This document shows positions 28,529 through 35,001 of a DNA stretch of 64,000 nt, piece by piece. The notes under the pieces were generated by a model, which was given only the letters and a program-made list of their open reading frames with translations, searched no databases and had not been told where the DNA came from. The position numbers were made by a program, and so were the translations under genes. Numbering within the stretch: position 1 is the stretch's first letter; each line of letters starts with the position of its first letter. The DNA lies in the sequence record OP870146.1, one strand, 5' to 3'. Origin of the DNA: Escherichia phage vB_Eco_F27.

Positions 28529-30616
28529 CTATCCTTGGACAAATTTAAACGGAACTGATTCTAAATCCATTAAAGATGCTAACAATTTCAAACCTTTAGG
28601 TGCACTAGTTTTTTCTACAAATGAGGAGAACGATACCGGCTCAACTGATTCGATTTCACCCGTCATAGCAACCACCTCGCCTGTTTCCATGAGAACATCA
28701 CCATCGTAAATGACAGCTTCATCTAACTGGTCTGAGGACATGACTTCAGCTTGAATAAATTTAAGGTTGGATTCTAAACCTGCACCAGTGTCAGATGACG
28801 CATCTGTAATTTTATTTATCTGCAAGAGAATGCCTCTAGGCAAAATAATTTCTTGCTCATTAGGGTGATTACTCAACTGTCCCGGATAAATCACGTTAAC
28901 TTTATGGGCGCCATCAATAGCCCATCCAACGTTAACACGGATTTGTTCTGGTGCATGCATAGCTGTTCTTACTTGACTAGGAGAAATAGTAACACCTTCG
29001 TCATTATTGTCAATGTTAAGCTCTTTGCGAACTTCTTCAGGAGCAAGTCCAAGGGCAACGTTCTCTTTAAACCCACCGAAAATAATAGGAGCTAGTGAAG
29101 TGGAAACATAGTTTCTGAAATAGAATACCTTATTTTTAACCATTGCTTCGTAAATAGGCATTCTGATAGACTGAGCTCTATATAACGTTAGTCCTTCAGG
29201 TAAACGGTCTCCATTTAAAAACGCCGAATCAAGACCATCAATAGCGCGTTTAACTTCATCTTCATCTGCAACATCGTAAAAATCTGGTTTATAACGACCT
29301 AACAACATATTATTGATATCGGTATACGCAGAAGAGGCATATTCACGAATAGCTCGTTTTTCAGCAACAGAGTATTGTTTAGGGTCCCGATTCATTGTTA
29401 TATTAAAGGTGCCTCTAGCCGATTCTCGTGCATAAGTATACATCACATTAGACAAGAACGCTGATTTACGTTGTTTCCAAGTTTTTTCAGATACTTCAGC
29501 TAAAACATCGTCGGCCAGTTGGAAATTATCACGTCTAAAATCTTCAAACCATTCGTCTTTAATAGAGTCTGCAATTTCATTTGCAGCTTCAACAAAAGCA
29601 GCTAATGCTTTAACAGATGTTGTTTTTTCAGTTTTAATTTTCTTAGCAAACTTTTCTAAAGTTGGCTTAATAACACTACCATAAGAAACTTCATCAGCAA
29701 ATCTAAAGGATTCATCAATACGATTATAAATCTTATTTTCGATATCAGCAACTAAAGTGCCTTTTGCTGTGGATGATGCTTGGGCCAGTACGATTTCATA
29801 TGCTTCAGGAAGTAATTCGGCTGTAGCTGGGCCGCTAACTTCTTTAGCAGAATTTTCGTATTTCTGGAATAACTCACCTTCTTGGCGGTCAGCTTCTAAA
29901 GATTGACTTGCTGCAATAGCACGACGAGAAATTTTAGTACGAGCAATAACAGGCTTATCTTTACGTTTTTCTTCTACAGCAGCAATAGAACCAGCGATAG
30001 CCGTTTCTTTGGTGACCTTTTCGCCGGTCTTTTTACTCACATAAACTTCGCCAACATCAGAATCTACTTTCGCGTACAACTCTGTGTTAATGTTAGGGAT
30101 GCCTTTAATATCTTCAATGTTGGCATTTTTACGAACCATCATCACATAGGTGTGTTTACCTGTGAATTGATACATTGCCGACAATACTTTAAAACGACCA
30201 CTGGTTTTAGTAGAAACTAAACGAGCAAGAAGAGTTTGAAGCTGCTGTCCGCGTCCTTTCAATTTCTTGGTAGGGAATCGGAACAGAACCGCATCCATAC
30301 GAAGAGCTTTAACCTGTTCATACACTGTATTGAAAATGGTGTTGATTGCATCAATAGGAGCAGGACCAAGGCCATTTTTCAATTCAGCTAGATTACCCTT
30401 TTCAGACAGACTCATAATAACAACATGAGCGTATTTGTCGCCAAGTTTAACTTGTTTTACAGCGTCGCCTTCGGAAAGGTAAGAGAATAAACGAACTACA
30501 ATATTTGTATCGATATCACCAATTTTCCAGACTTGTGGAACTTTAGCTTTAGGGTTCAAATTGACGACAGGAAGACTGCCTTCAGATTCAAACACTTCAT
30601 TTAATTGTTCAGACAT
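28529..30616 (-). CDS. alt: Alt-like ADP-ribosyltransferase (virion-packaged)
   Basis: 695 aa (T4 Alt 682 aa); position between gene 54 and DNA ligase as in T4; assigned by synteny and size. Confidence 0.7.
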   Translation of the reverse strand: MSEQLNEVFESEGSLPVVNLNPKAKVPQVWKIGDIDTNIVVRLFSYLSEGDAVKQVKLGDKYAHVVIMSLSEKGNLAELKNGLGPAPIDAINTIFNTVYEQVKALRMDAVLFRFPTKKLKGRGQQLQTLLARLVSTKTSGRFKVLSAMYQFTGKHTYVMMVRKNANIEDIKGIPNINTELYAKVDSDVGEVYVSKKTGEKVTKETAIAGSIAAVEEKRKDKPVIARTKISRRAIAASQSLEADRQEGELFQKYENSAKEVSGPATAELLPEAYEIVLAQASSTAKGTLVADIENKIYNRIDESFRFADEVSYGSVIKPTLEKFAKKIKTEKTTSVKALAAFVEAANEIADSIKDEWFEDFRRDNFQLADDVLAEVSEKTWKQRKSAFLSNVMYTYARESARGTFNITMNRDPKQYSVAEKRAIREYASSAYTDINNMLLGRYKPDFYDVADEDEVKRAIDGLDSAFLNGDRLPEGLTLYRAQSIRMPIYEAMVKNKVFYFRNYVSTSLAPIIFGGFKENVALGLAPEEVRKELNIDNNDEGVTISPSQVRTAMHAPEQIRVNVGWAIDGAHKVNVIYPGQLSNHPNEQEIILPRGILLQINKITDASSDTGAGLESNLKFIQAEVMSSDQLDEAVIYDGDVLMETGEVVAMTGEIESVEPVSFSSFVEKTSAPKGLKLLASLMDLESVPFKFVQG

Positions 30617-30672: not shown

Positions 30673-30860
30673 TAATCCACAATCGGAAGCAAAGTACGAT
30701 AAACTTCAAAATTAGAGCCTTTTTCGTACTTATCGAAATTGTCCATAAAAATATGATAGGAATCGTTATTAGGAAAATCTAATATAATCTGAGAGCAAGA
30801 GGTGGAAACATCTCCACCATCCTTCTTAGCTACAATAACTGTTTCTAAATAAGCTTTCAT
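30672..30860 (-). CDS. Hypothetical small protein
   Basis: 62 aa from the ATG that forms a TAATG overlap with the gene 30 stop (translational coupling); stop lies within a hairpin. Confidence 0.45.
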   Translation of the reverse strand: MKAYLETVIVAKKDGGDVSTSCSQIILDFPNNDSYHIFMDNFDKYEKGSNFEVYRTLLPIVD

Positions 30861-32353
30861 TATAAACCTGTCTGGGACCACGGTCCAAATACGTCTTCAA
30901 ACGAATCCGCTTCTGTTTTATCAAAACGGAACCCTTTAATAATTGGGAGGAAAATACCTACAGTGCCTTCACGTCCTTTAGAATGAACCCAACCATTGCA
31001 TTCACAATCAGCAATACGTCCAATCAATTTACCTTCACGAGCTTCGGTCATTAATCGTTCACGGTCCAAATCATGTCGCTCATCTAAAGGAATAAGAACC
31101 TTTACACCATCAACTGTTTTATGAGTTGTATCTTTAAACCCTGAACCACAATCGGTTGTAATACGACGACAACGTGATACGAGTTCGACACCACCTAATT
31201 TGTTAGGGTCTTTAGAGTGTTCATAGTATCCTACAACTTCTAAAGCGATATCAATAACTTCTTTAAATTTAATTAGGTTCTTAGAACGTTTGTTTTCCCA
31301 ATATGAATCACGGTTTTTAAGGATAATACCTTCAAGACCTTGGTCAACATATTTTTTATAAACCACTTTAGCTTCGTCAAGATTACGAACTAACTGATTT
31401 TCAATTGGCTCAATTCGTTTAAAGCCTTCAGCCATATTTTCAAGAGCAGCAAAACGAACATCGTATTTCTGACCTTTAATTTTGCCATCAGAATAGACTT
31501 CATCTAAAGGAACATAGTCCCAGGCTTGAAGAACCATACCTTCAGCTTCTTTAGGAGAAATAGTCCCTTGAAGAGATTTATTTGCTAAACCGTTTGAAGT
31601 GCTACGGTCTGCAACTTGTACTTCTTCGGATTCTTCATTATCACCAAATAAGAACGACAGGTCATTTCCTGAGCTCACAGCCTTTTTAATATCGAATGAA
31701 TGATAAACTAATTCACCGTCGATTAAAACCCCATTAGGGTGTCTTTCACGAGCTTCTTTAGTCATTTCCATTAGTTCATCCGCTAATAGGGTAAGACCAT
31801 GGTATTCATTACCAGCACGAGAAAAGAATTGAACACCATCATCGCGAACTTCAGCGAAACAACGAGCACCATCTGCTTTTAATTGAGCAAATGCAGGCCA
31901 TTTAATATTTTTAGTAATCAATTTCTCATCATATGCAGATGCTAACATCTGTGGTTGCAATTGAATAAGTCCAGGCCACACCTTATTCGCGATAGACACT
32001 GAAGCACCTACTTCAAGGTCGCGCATCATTACACGACGAAGGACTTCTACATCATCGGGTTTACCATCAGCGATATAACCCATGAGCTCTTTAATTGCAG
32101 CATTACCAGTGAGTTTACGAGTAGCTAATGTGAACTCAATAAAATCCAACATGTCATCTAATTCAAGAAGTCCATACGCTTGAGACCTTTCACCTGGTCC
32201 TGGCCATTTCTTAATATAATACTGGATACCACGTGCATATGTTAAACGATACACACGTTCAAGTAATTTGTTGTCCTTATTTTTCTTAAGGATTTCTTGT
32301 TTTGTTTTAGTAGAACCGATCGCAGCTATTTGGTTTAAAATATCTAAAATCAT
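30860..32353 (-). CDS. 30: ATP-dependent DNA ligase gp30
   Basis: 497 aa; adenylation motif KADGARC; T4 gp30 is 487 aa. Confidence 0.9.
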   Translation of the reverse strand: MILDILNQIAAIGSTKTKQEILKKNKDNKLLERVYRLTYARGIQYYIKKWPGPGERSQAYGLLELDDMLDFIEFTLATRKLTGNAAIKELMGYIADGKPDDVEVLRRVMMRDLEVGASVSIANKVWPGLIQLQPQMLASAYDEKLITKNIKWPAFAQLKADGARCFAEVRDDGVQFFSRAGNEYHGLTLLADELMEMTKEARERHPNGVLIDGELVYHSFDIKKAVSSGNDLSFLFGDNEESEEVQVADRSTSNGLANKSLQGTISPKEAEGMVLQAWDYVPLDEVYSDGKIKGQKYDVRFAALENMAEGFKRIEPIENQLVRNLDEAKVVYKKYVDQGLEGIILKNRDSYWENKRSKNLIKFKEVIDIALEVVGYYEHSKDPNKLGGVELVSRCRRITTDCGSGFKDTTHKTVDGVKVLIPLDERHDLDRERLMTEAREGKLIGRIADCECNGWVHSKGREGTVGIFLPIIKGFRFDKTEADSFEDVFGPWSQTGL

Positions 32354-32619
32354 TTGATGTCCTCGATTTTGGTTACGGTTCTATTATAAGCCACTTCATC
32401 TAGAAGCGATTTCAGCGTTTTCTGATAAGTGGTAATCCATTTACCGAGACCTTCAACATAATATTCTGAAATGTAGATGAACCCTTGTTCAACACACTCT
32501 TTAAATATTTCTGCGTCTTTTACTGAACGAAACAATGGCCAATCTCGAAAGAACATGTTAACGTGACCGTAGTCACGCGTTGTGTTTTTGCCATCTGTAA
32601 TATCATGAACTACAAACAT
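32350..32619 (-). CDS. Hypothetical protein (T4 30.1 position)
   Basis: 89-aa ORF; 4-nt overlap with gene 30. Confidence 0.5.
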   Translation of the reverse strand: MFVVHDITDGKNTTRDYGHVNMFFRDWPLFRSVKDAEIFKECVEQGFIYISEYYVEGLGKWITTYQKTLKSLLDEVAYNRTVTKIEDIK

Positions 32620-32628
32620 AATTAACCC

Positions 32629-33444
32629 TTAACAATTTATAGACCAAGTCCATTTAGACGAATCTAAAGGAAAGTTTTGAATCGTCCACCATGGCTGCAT
32701 ATCGGTTGGTCCTGGAGTTCGCCAGGTATACGGATTCGACGGAGCGCCGATTTGATTAGGCCATGCGCCTGGACTTGTTGTACCAGATTCTTTAAGCAAA
32801 TCCGCCAATCGTTTTAAAAGGTCTTCACGATCTGAATCTGAATTATGCTCTGGTGGAACCAAACGAGATTCAATATCATCCCACGTGTGTACACGTTGTG
32901 CAGTACGAGGAATGGCATCACGTTCACCACGAGCCAACCAATAAATCGGTACATTAAGAATTTCTGCTGCATGGTCACAGTGATGAGCTAAATCGTCAAC
33001 GTAACAAATCACGTTATATTTTGTTTTAGCTAGTTCGAATAATTGTTCCTTTGAAGAATCATGACCACACATCATTACTTCAGAGAAAGCGCCTGGGAAC
33101 AAAGCATTCAAATTAAATTGTCTATTCAATCGAGCATCAATTGAATCACCTAGCGCCGTCACAGCTACAAAATTATAGTCTTCTTTTAGTTTATTGATAA
33201 CTCGAAGAGCATCCGAATAAGGCGCTAAGTAACGAATAAAATCAGAGCGATTATATTTTTCTATTAATTGTTTACCGAGATTATCGTCGGTATTGAATAG
33301 TTTACCAGGAGAAATAAATTTTTCGTCCTGAATCATTTTTAAAATATGTTCTAATGGAAGATTATATTTTTGGGCAAAATAAGGAAGTCCAGATTGCCAG
33401 CTTAAACATACACCATCAATATCAGTCAAAATAGTAGGCTTCAT
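32629..33444 (-). CDS. HAD-superfamily phosphatase-like protein (T4 30.2 position)
   Basis: 271 aa; N-terminal DIDGV, matching the HAD motif I DxDG(T/V). Confidence 0.6.
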   Translation of the reverse strand: MKPTILTDIDGVCLSWQSGLPYFAQKYNLPLEHILKMIQDEKFISPGKLFNTDDNLGKQLIEKYNRSDFIRYLAPYSDALRVINKLKEDYNFVAVTALGDSIDARLNRQFNLNALFPGAFSEVMMCGHDSSKEQLFELAKTKYNVICYVDDLAHHCDHAAEILNVPIYWLARGERDAIPRTAQRVHTWDDIESRLVPPEHNSDSDREDLLKRLADLLKESGTTSPGAWPNQIGAPSNPYTWRTPGPTDMQPWWTIQNFPLDSSKWTWSINC

Positions 33445-33908
33445 AAAGAGTCTCTTAATAGGTTTAACACATCAACAAATTCAGCTTCGGTTAGTATTGT
33501 ATCATCTTTTGTTAGACCACTAGCCATGCTGTGCTTCAAAATTTTTCCTTTAGAGGCTTGTAAGGCATCACGAAACCCCTTGTTTTGGATCGCGGCTTCA
33601 AAATATGCATTTGTGTATAATTCTTTCCACGCTTCGGAGTATCTTGAAAATGGAACTCCTAACCAGAAGAGAGTCCCACGGTCCTGAGCTCTTGCATAAG
33701 ACCTTCCAGCTTGCTGTGCAGCCAATCCAGACAACCTAAATATACGTCTTTGTTGTTCAATATTTTTCACCTTACATCCTTGGAGAAATCCTTCAAGACC
33801 TCCGAATTGAATACCATCCATAACAAAAGGCCATTGAGCAAAGTTACTTAATGCACATGACGGCCATTTGAAATTACTTCTTATTTCTAATTCAGACATC
33901 TTTAACAC
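33441..33908 (-). CDS. NADAR / YbiA-like domain protein (T4 30.3 position)
   Basis: 155 aa; ALSNFAQWPFVMDGIQF resembles the YbiA/NADAR core (SNFaaWP...DG) as recalled from E. coli YbiA; ATGA overlap with the HAD-like gene. Confidence 0.6.
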   Translation of the reverse strand: MLKMSELEIRSNFKWPSCALSNFAQWPFVMDGIQFGGLEGFLQGCKVKNIEQQRRIFRLSGLAAQQAGRSYARAQDRGTLFWLGVPFSRYSEAWKELYTNAYFEAAIQNKGFRDALQASKGKILKHSMASGLTKDDTILTEAEFVDVLNLLRDSL

Positions 33909-34110
33909 TTATAATTTCAACATCAGCCCAATGTCCGTATCCAGGTATACGGTCTTCGATAGATAAATTTCTGTCATTTTTAGGCATTTTAATTGACGTA
34001 ACGTATGGTTCTAAACGGTTTTCCGCGTAATATGGAAAAACGTCGGTTACACGATAAGTAACTTCAATCATTTCCGTACCAAACAATTTCTGGATTAATT
34101 TATTCAACAT
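33892..34110 (-). CDS. Hypothetical protein
   Basis: 72-aa ORF in the 30.x early cluster, overlapping neighbours. Confidence 0.45.
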   Translation of the reverse strand: MLNKLIQKLFGTEMIEVTYRVTDVFPYYAENRLEPYVTSIKMPKNDRNLSIEDRIPGYGHWADVEIISVKDV

Positions 34111-34297
34111 GTTTCAACCCTTTAATAGGAGATAACTCTTTACCCATACGTATGTCAGAAGTCCCATCAACCCATTGAACAGCATACGCTTCATTGATAA
34201 TTCCAGCGGCAGTTTTAAATTCGTTGAGAACTTTAAAAATCATCCCAGGGATTCCAACACCTTTTAATTGGACTGTTTGTGCTATTAAAAATTTCAT
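34100..34297 (-). CDS. Hypothetical protein
   Basis: 65-aa ORF; promoter-like GTGTAC...TATAAT upstream at 34300-34345. Confidence 0.45.
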   Translation of the reverse strand: MKFLIAQTVQLKGVGIPGMIFKVLNEFKTAAGIINEAYAVQWVDGTSDIRMGKELSPIKGLKHVE

Positions 34298-34351
34298 ATT
34301 TTTCCACTTACTAAAGAAATCATTATACTCTAATCCGTCCTTGGATGTACA

Positions 34352-34966
34352 CTACTTAATGAAATTAATTTCTACCGGATGAACAACAGGTTGAGCAGTG
34401 ATATATTGAGTAATTGCTTTCATGACTAGAGCTTCAGAGCCAGGATTTTTCTCAACGAATTCACGTGCTTGGTTATGAGCTTCAAGTTCACTTAGTAAAC
34501 CACTTCGTTGACATCCACGGTCTTGAGTACCCTGTTCAGATAAAAAGGCGACGATGTATTTTTCATCGTCATACGGTTTAGACGGTTGAGCAAATGTTCC
34601 TTTACTTCCAAAAGGAGAGTTATGACGCCACATCACGCCGTTAGGAGTTTCAACCTTCGTATATTCGTGCGGGCCATTTTTCTTAGTTTCTTGATGTGGA
34701 ACTTCATGGACCTTAGGGTTAGGACATTCAATAAAATGCTCATCTAAATCAGTCGAGAATATTAAAGTAAAACAATTACTAAATTTACCAACACCTGCCT
34801 GATAAATTTTACCTTCAGACGTTCTAATTTCACAAACCGAGCCAGCATCAGTAACTTCTAAAACTTCAAAAGGCTCGATAAGATCATATGAGAACATGTT
34901 TTTAAGGCGTGGAGTAATATCCCCATTTTTAAAATTCATTTTATAAAAAGTATTAACTTTAAACAT
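34352..34966 (-). CDS. Hypothetical 204-aa protein
   Basis: Start reassigned to MFKVNTF..., preceded by GAGGAAA RBS and a GGGAGCUUCGGCUCCC leader hairpin. Confidence 0.55.
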   Translation of the reverse strand: MFKVNTFYKMNFKNGDITPRLKNMFSYDLIEPFEVLEVTDAGSVCEIRTSEGKIYQAGVGKFSNCFTLIFSTDLDEHFIECPNPKVHEVPHQETKKNGPHEYTKVETPNGVMWRHNSPFGSKGTFAQPSKPYDDEKYIVAFLSEQGTQDRGCQRSGLLSELEAHNQAREFVEKNPGSEALVMKAITQYITAQPVVHPVEINFIK

Positions 34967-35001
34967 AATTTCCTCAGTGGGAGCCGAAGCTCCCAATTAA
35001 T

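Follow-up and report, generated by a model that had tools for sequence, protein, structure and literature searches.

The closest described counterpart of the system treated here is the NADAR protein encoded by gene 30.3 of phage T4, which was renamed adfN by Johannesman et al. (Nat Commun 2025; PMC11825919). In that study, AdfN was found to be necessary and sufficient for T-even phages' resistance to the toxin–antitoxin defence DarTG1 and to strip ADP-ribose from DarT1-modified DNA in vitro; the same activity was found for a phage NADAR in an independent in vitro study (PMC11125620). For full rescue activity, T4 AdfN required the residues E36 and K43 as well as its C-terminal helix, as revealed by mutagenesis, and the protein was fully active in vivo only during T-even infection, for which the authors postulate a T-even factor (PMC11825919). 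The DarTG1 sensitivity of phage RB69 was traced to a one-base insertion that shortens its adfN allele by 15 residues, while Bas46 and Bas47, the two closest relatives of RB69 among the phages tested, were both resistant (PMC11825919). Furthermore, the NADAR proteins described so far differ in a residue of the last strand, which is His in phage NADARs, Glu in YbiA, and Asp in DarG1 (PMC11125620, PMC11543638). Here we examine how a locus in Escherichia phage vB_Eco_F27 (sequence record OP870146.1; the whole stretch of 64,000 nucleotides that was analysed is called the window) compares with these systems, and in particular its genes 30.2 and 30.3, which overlap each other.

The genome in the window is that of an RB69-like T-even phage of the genus Mosigvirus, as judged from the best DNA match and the preserved gene order; indeed, the 2 kb around the locus shares 99% identity with Escherichia phage vB_EcoM_G2469 and 97–98% with many other Mosigvirus genomes. 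A preliminary description of the sequence had reported a HAD-phosphatase-like gene overlapping a NADAR/YbiA-like gene and had proposed a functional link between the two. Both open reading frames (ORFs) are present on the minus strand, at 32629–33444 and 33441–33908, respectively. In our view, it is highly probable that 30.2 and 30.3 are orthologues of the T4 early genes in Mosigvirus that have separate functions and stand side by side, and that they do not constitute a dedicated two-enzyme module.

Gene 30.3 as an intact AdfN-type NADAR

The ORF at 33441–33908 was listed from a GTG codon, and an ATG at 33899 gives a protein of 152 amino acids. Because this length equals that of T4 gp30.3 and of the coding sequences annotated in close relatives, the true gene is most likely 33441–33899 (minus strand). 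Its product matches the Pfam model PF08010 (Phage_30_3) across the whole profile (positions 1–138 of 138) with 229.1 bits (cutoff, 36; E = 1.9e-68), and a profile built from 57 homologues matches E. coli YbiA with an E value of 0.0058. The preliminary description had proposed a fold check by AlphaFold modelling and structure comparison, and this check, run for both proteins with AlphaFold2 and Foldseek, recovered the NADAR and HAD folds. For gp30.3, the model was of high quality (predicted local distance difference test, pLDDT, 92.8; predicted template-modelling score, pTM, 0.88), and the top three matches in the PDB were YbiA (2b3w; 9.7e-5, TM 0.67), PnNADAR of Phytophthora (8bau), and the DarG1-type GlNADAR of Geobacter (8bat). 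All of the remaining PDB matches had a probability of 0.06 or less, and NADAR proteins were hence the only credible fold matches; together with the Pfam and YbiA profile matches, this bears out the NADAR/YbiA-like assignment.

In the window protein, E36, K43, and H123 are all present and are invariant in the alignment of the 57 homologues. H123 is found in an LKHSM motif, directly after the strand modelled at residues 120–122, and residues 138–152 are also present and modelled as a helix; namely, the C-terminal helix is intact. The window protein and T4 AdfN are 95% identical over all 152 residues, with seven substitutions, and the two genes share not only their length but also their genomic position, an 8-nt overlap with 30.4, and the ATGA overlap with 30.2. 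Window gene 30.3 is thus the orthologue of T4 adfN, a phage-type NADAR; the T4 gene resides in a Tequatrovirus genome and that of the window in a Mosigvirus genome. Given the 95% identity to the T4 protein, window AdfN would remove guanine-linked ADP-ribose from DNA and thereby protect against DarTG1. More specifically, it would hydrolyse the N-glycosidic bond linking guanine to the ADP-ribose moiety that phage DNA receives from host DarT1, and this removal would let replication proceed in DarTG1-bearing hosts. An anti-DarT role of the NADAR had also been raised in the preliminary description; this is right for the 95% identical T4 AdfN, where it has been established by experiment, but it is not new, as the anti-DarTG1 function of AdfN is already published (PMC11825919, PMC11125620).

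The comparison with RB69 is of particular relevance, since this phage belongs to the same genus and its gp30.3, encoded at the same locus, is 96% identical to the window protein over the first 137 residues. In the DNA alignment, however, RB69 reads AACTTGAAG against AACCGAAG in the window and is one base longer at this point; this additional base in RB69 creates a TGA, and the last 15 residues constituting the terminal helix are lost, whereas the window allele is intact. Also, RB69 has a 42-nt gap before 30.2 in place of the ATGA overlap of the window. Because the window adfN is full length and retains every known catalytic residue, resistance to DarTG1 is predicted for the phage in the window, in contrast to RB69.

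Two other kinds of NADAR need to be considered. The DarG1/BC4488-type and YbiA proteins share with gp30.3 the NADAR fold, the conserved Glu/Lys pair, and the guanine-linked ADP-ribose chemistry. DarG1 (BC4488-type) nonetheless carries an N-terminal extension, has Asp at the last-strand position, and is encoded beside darT1, whereas gp30.3 has His, consists of 152 residues with no extension, and is flanked by 30.4 and 30.2; furthermore, T4 AdfN cannot substitute for DarG1 in uninfected cells (PMC11825919, PMC11125620). In the YbiA subfamily, the last strand carries Glu at the position where gp30.3 has H123. Judged by these features, therefore, gp30.3 belongs neither to the DarG1-type antitoxins nor to the YbiA subfamily.

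This has a direct bearing on another suggestion of the preliminary description, which is that the gene pair serves metabolite damage control in the manner of YbiA. In such a reading, the NADAR would cleave reactive intermediates of the riboflavin pathway, and the HAD enzyme would dephosphorylate pathway intermediates. Among solved structures, YbiA is indeed the best match of gp30.3 in both sequence and fold, and one metagenome annotation calls a gp30.2 homologue “FMN phosphatase YigB.” A YbiA-style repair function does not fit, however, because phage NADARs carry His in place of the Glu that is diagnostic of the YbiA subfamily. In addition, T4 gp30.3 acts on ADP-ribosylated DNA, the only known phenotype of the gene is the counter-defence against DarTG1, and no phenotype was seen in minimal versus rich medium in a transposon screen of T4 (see below). 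We thus regard metabolite damage control as extremely unlikely.

Apart from the assignment of gp30.3, two observations on the gene itself can be made. First, adfN is much closer than its neighbours to its T4 counterpart (L083:2501–2959) in synonymous divergence (dS, 0.47) and nucleotide identity (90%), while dS is saturated in the neighbouring genes 30.1, 30.2, and 30.5; gene 30.7 has a dS of 0.70 against T4, which is similar to that of adfN. The low dS of adfN suggests either that Tequatrovirus and Mosigvirus have exchanged the gene in a mosaic manner or that the DNA is under an extra constraint. Second, an out-of-frame internal ORF called 30.3' is annotated within 30.3 in T4 records but is not preserved in the window, where the corresponding frame (33536–33763, minus strand) has ATA for ATG and is interrupted by an in-frame stop codon. 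Given this lack of conservation, 30.3' probably does not represent a genuine gene.

Linkage between genes 30.2 and 30.3

The ATGA overlap noted in the preliminary description was verified by reading the sequence at 33441–33444 (minus strand), where the ATG of 30.2 occupies 33444–33442 and the TGA of 30.3 occupies 33443–33441. The same overlap is kept in 13 close T-even loci and also in one distant locus, L015, the NADAR of which has 47% identity. It is hence conceivable that the two genes encode a coupled two-step pathway, in which ADP-ribose release (or the processing of an NAD-derived signal) by AdfN is combined with dephosphorylation, by gp30.2, of either substrate or product. Besides the conserved overlap, several facts would be consistent with such a pathway: 30.2 and 30.3 both belong to the near-core gene set of T4-like phages and resemble each other closely in host distribution (1510 and 1444 phage records), a frequent coupling of ADP-ribosyl-glycohydrolases with phosphatases, among them a HAD 5'-nucleotidase, has been noted in bacterial systems (PMC9503650), and AdfN requires the postulated T-even factor (PMC11825919). 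As described below, however, neither the gene neighbourhoods nor the genetic data favour the coupled pathway.

We compared 80 NADAR loci on viral contigs and 77 loci encoding 30.2. A 30.2 homologue was present within 6 kb in approximately 24 of the 80 NADAR loci and absent in the other 56 or so. In the 77 loci with 30.2, the gene for DNA ligase adjoins just downstream in 70, compared with 36 that have a NADAR in the vicinity; it is thus the ligase, and not the NADAR, that accompanies 30.2 as a conserved neighbour. Even where 30.2 and 30.3 both occur, they are often 0.7–1.2 kb apart, and in several complete genomes, 30.2 and the NADAR are separated by more than 50 kb (e.g., contig 2706796796, which was sampled as both L050 and L117). 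In other words, the linkage between 30.2 and 30.3 is limited to certain lineages.

A recurring NADAR–phosphatase pairing was also sought elsewhere, but the 50 flanking ORFs (at least 120 amino acids) of the NADAR loci lacking 30.2 included no phosphatase family. These ORFs were heterogeneous, with nucleases, helicases, glycosyltransferases, and one ligase among them, and there was no recurrent partner. No fusion of HAD and NADAR domains was found among 107 NADAR homologues with lengths of 83–201 amino acids. As to the history of the two genes, dS against T4 is 0.47 for 30.3 and approximately 1.8 (saturated) for 30.2. Because dS differs so sharply, 30.3 and 30.2 have not moved as one block, and a recent co-transfer of this kind between T4-like genera can be ruled out; namely, the two genes have no shared recent history. 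We also noticed an IMG/VR contig (3300029986_000086; L018:6001–7756) in which a NADAR gene (41% identity) is followed 5 nt on by a ligase gene (30% identity), an intervening HAD gene being absent, so that adjacency of NADAR and ligase is possible without 30.2.

Genetic data are available from a published transposon screen of T4 (HIDEN-SEQ; bioRxiv preprint 10.1101/2025.11.20.689424), for which the values were read from the supplementary table. In the DarTG1 host, insertions in 30.3 were lost (mean, 261.0 to 0.7; log2 fold change, −7.25; q = 0), whereas those in 30.2 were neutral at 71 sites (271.5 to 249.8; log2 fold change, −0.12; p = 0.61); only two genes, adfN and 30.4, were significant in this host. 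Furthermore, T4 30.2 was non-essential on K-12, with 72 out of 72 TA sites being hit, and was neutral in minimal (M9) versus rich (LB) medium. No condition screened to date has thus required T4 30.2. The neutrality of 30.2 on DarTG1 also makes gp30.2 a poor candidate for the T-even factor that potentiates AdfN, and we consider this role unlikely.

Neither linkage across lineages nor a shared phenotype, the two features by which a two-gene module would be recognised, was therefore observed. The proposal of the preliminary description that the phosphatase and the NADAR are functionally linked is not supported, given the lineage-specific adjacency, the lack of a recurrent phosphatase beside NADARs of the AdfN type, and the differing outcomes for 30.2 (neutral) and 30.3 (lost) insertions on DarTG1. 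Since purified AdfN is, in addition, sufficient alone in vitro (PMC11825919, PMC11125620), a coupled two-step pathway appears to be very unlikely. Instead, we favour the reading that 30.2 and 30.3 are neighbouring early genes with separate functions. AdfN would then act as a stand-alone enzyme, while gp30.2 would act separately as a capped HAD phosphomonoesterase that is a conserved neighbour of DNA ligase. Their adjacency would reflect a densely packed cluster of early genes in which overlaps are the norm; indeed, overlaps of 4 nt (ligase gene/30.1), 4 nt (30.2/30.3), 8 nt (30.3/30.4), and 11 nt (30.4/30.5) are found in the cluster, and approximately one-third of the junctions across the annotated neighbourhood overlap.

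Several points nonetheless weigh against separate functions of the two genes. Conservation of the ATGA overlap among close T-even genera, as well as in a single distant phage, could reflect selection for co-expression. T4 AdfN relies on the postulated T-even factor for its full activity in vivo (PMC11825919), and 30.2 is present in RB69 but was not detected outside T4-like phages; because of this distribution, T5 and Bas25 are probably without 30.2. Alternatively, 30.2 and 30.3 may have a joint role against other ADP-ribosylating defences, as the transposon screen covers one DarTG1 system.

Gene 30.2 as a putative HAD phosphatase

Gene 30.2 (32629–33444, minus strand) encodes a protein of 271 amino acids that begins with MKPTILTDIDGV and has a DxDGV motif at residues 8–12. 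The protein can be divided into a HAD phosphatase core (residues 1–195; 32860–33444), into which a helical C1-type cap (residues about 12–75) is inserted, and a C-terminal tail rich in Trp and Pro (residues 196–271 and the stop codon; 32629–32859). The HAD catalytic motifs I (DxD; D8 and D10), II (T/S; T96), III (K; K132), and IV (DD; D150 and D151) are all present: D8, D10, and K132 do not vary across the 57 aligned homologues, at least 90% of which share T96, D150, and D151. In the AlphaFold model, pLDDT exceeds 90 throughout residues 1–195. The model shows a Rossmann-like HAD core, and the C1-type cap corresponds to a helical segment inserted between motifs I and II. The HAD fold and the intact motifs I–IV thus agree with the assignment as a HAD phosphatase in the preliminary description.

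Sequence searches were less informative. No Pfam HAD model scored above threshold for window gp30.2 (HAD_2, 15.5 bits vs a cutoff of 23.8), and the homologues gave only sub-threshold matches to the Hydrolase, NT5C, and HAD_2 families. When the PDB was searched with either the single sequence or the profile of gp30.2, the best E values were 0.25–0.5, none of which was significant; searches against NCBIfam and PADLOC gave no match. The placement of gp30.2 in the HAD superfamily therefore rests on the fold and motifs. A full-text literature search for “gp30.2” returned no papers, and in some GenBank records, 30.2 bears the annotation HAD hydrolase, phosphatase, or 5' nucleotidase.

The profile search against 1.8 billion representative proteins collected 1059 relatives of gp30.2, most of which are stand-alone proteins of 190–230 amino acids. 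Among 58 more distant relatives, the leading Pfam family was NT5C (PF06941), with 19 members and a best E value of 4.2e-10. Among HAD families, gp30.2 appears to be most similar to the NT5C-type 5'(3')-deoxyribonucleotidases (PF06941; PDB 3bwv, 6g2n, and 2jao), but it differs from them in possessing an extra disordered tail of approximately 75 residues and in that its own sequence has no above-threshold match to a HAD family of Pfam. From the fold and the motifs, we conclude that gp30.2 would be an Mg-dependent small-molecule phosphomonoesterase of the HAD superfamily. Because gp30.2 is closest to the NT5C-type 5'(3')-(deoxy)nucleotidases, its substrate is most likely a nucleoside monophosphate; this relationship consists of sub-threshold sequence matches and a fold similarity that is common to many HAD enzymes with other specificities, and it should hence be counted with the reservations raised above.

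Given the conserved proximity to the ligase gene, we also considered the possibility that gp30.2 partners DNA ligase, either as a 3'-phosphatase that heals nicks before ligation or as an enzyme that removes a by-product of the ligase. In the HAD superfamily, helical caps are generally associated with small substrates, and DNA-end phosphatases are not known to carry them; such a cap is present in the gp30.2 model, between motifs I and II. In the structure comparison, the match to PNKP spans only 125–127 residues of the core and ranks 58–60, and the remote relatives of gp30.2 match NT5C but not PNK phosphatase. Furthermore, the ligase is essential in T4, whereas 30.2 is fully dispensable, and the adjacency may simply be inherited, given that gene order is broadly conserved in T4-like phages. 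A partnership with the ligase is hence distinctly unlikely, and we prefer to regard gp30.2 as a small-molecule phosphatase.

The C-terminal tail of gp30.2 contrasts with the core in its conservation. It is largely predicted to be disordered, with pLDDT mostly below 50 from around residue 231, while residues 203–221 are modelled as a helix. In comparison with T4, the nonsynonymous divergence (dN) is 0.81 in the tail and 0.05 in residues 1–100, and many homologues either lack the tail or cannot be aligned over it. It may serve as a short protein-binding peptide. At the C terminus of many relatives of gp30.2, a (G)xEYLxx(R/Q)PT motif is loosely conserved, and the Mosigvirus tail is without this motif. 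Also, in two remote relatives, P0261 (591 amino acids) and P0299 (660 amino acids), the HAD domain is located at the C terminus of a much longer protein; their N-terminal 380–500 residues had no Pfam match at the threshold used.

Gene 30.4 and the surrounding locus

Gene 30.4 (33892–34110, minus strand; 72 amino acids, phrog_2042) precedes adfN, and its stop codon overlaps the start of adfN by 8 nt (33892–33899). In the T4 screen, 30.4 was the gene that reached significance on DarTG1 besides adfN (log2 fold change, −1.79; q = 0.014). Gene 30.5, lying upstream, also tended to decrease on DarTG1 (−3.0), which was not significant, and 30.2 and 30.1, lying downstream, did not (10.1101/2025.11.20.689424). 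The simplest explanation of the 30.4 signal is a polar effect of the insertions on the expression of adfN. Homologues of gp30.4 were found only in 13 close T-even loci of the neighbourhood sample, each with the 8-nt overlap with adfN, and the close T-evens bearing gp30.4 are the very clade to which the full in vivo activity of AdfN is restricted. It may thus be asked whether gp30.4, rather than a downstream phosphatase, is the clade-specific potentiating factor needed by AdfN, i.e., the postulated T-even factor; we take this to be rather unlikely. A widely conserved small ORF related to gp30.4 on the 5' side of NADARs was not supported either, as phmmer and profile searches of 72 upstream ORFs gave other matches only with E values of at least 0.18.

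On the minus strand of the window, the genes follow the order of the T4 map: alt, alt.1, 30 (DNA ligase), 30.1, 30.2, 30.3, 30.4, and 30.5. The preliminary description had placed the 30.2/30.3 pair downstream of DNA ligase; because these genes are on the minus strand, however, the pair is upstream of the ligase gene in the direction of transcription. Gene 30 encodes an ATP-dependent DNA ligase (30860–32353, minus strand; Pfam DNA_ligase_A_M, 1.9e-26), and gene 30.1 (DUF3045) lies between 30.2 and the ligase gene (32350–32619, minus strand; Pfam PF11243, 1.4e-26). A sigma-70-like promoter candidate is located 5' of 30.5 (34322–34351, minus strand); it reads TGTACA-N18-TATAAT and, as a consensus match only, agrees with the consensus at 10 of 12 positions. 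A promoter is annotated at the matching position in the record of phage SA79RD, and the candidate is the probable start of an early transcription unit, 30.5-30.4-30.3-30.2-30.1.

Two further features of the locus were noticed. The gene for the packaged ADP-ribosyltransferase Alt (alt; 28529–30616) is on the same strand and starts approximately 240 bp past the ligase gene, so that an NAD-consuming transferase and an ADP-ribose-removing NADAR are encoded less than 5 kb apart in the window; such proximity of a transferase to an ADP-ribose-removing NADAR has been noted for T4-like phages by Iyer et al. (PMC9503650). Also, the slot just upstream of the adfN operon (34100–34996) is variable and mosaic: it contains 30.5 and an ORF of 214 amino acids (phrog_17531) in the window, 30.6 with no 30.5 in RB69, and both 30.5 and 30.6 in T4.

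Conclusion

The association of an overlapping phosphatase gene and NADAR gene, which might have been taken as a sign of a common function, can be set aside, and experimental effort is saved accordingly. The presence of an intact adfN in an RB69-like phage, despite the sensitivity of the type phage RB69, is relevant to the choice or engineering of T-even phages for DarTG1 hosts. Finally, gp30.2 belongs to a widespread family of phage HAD phosphatases with 1059 representatives, has a highly conserved core, and is encoded next to the ligase, all of which would make it a reasonable target for substrate screening.

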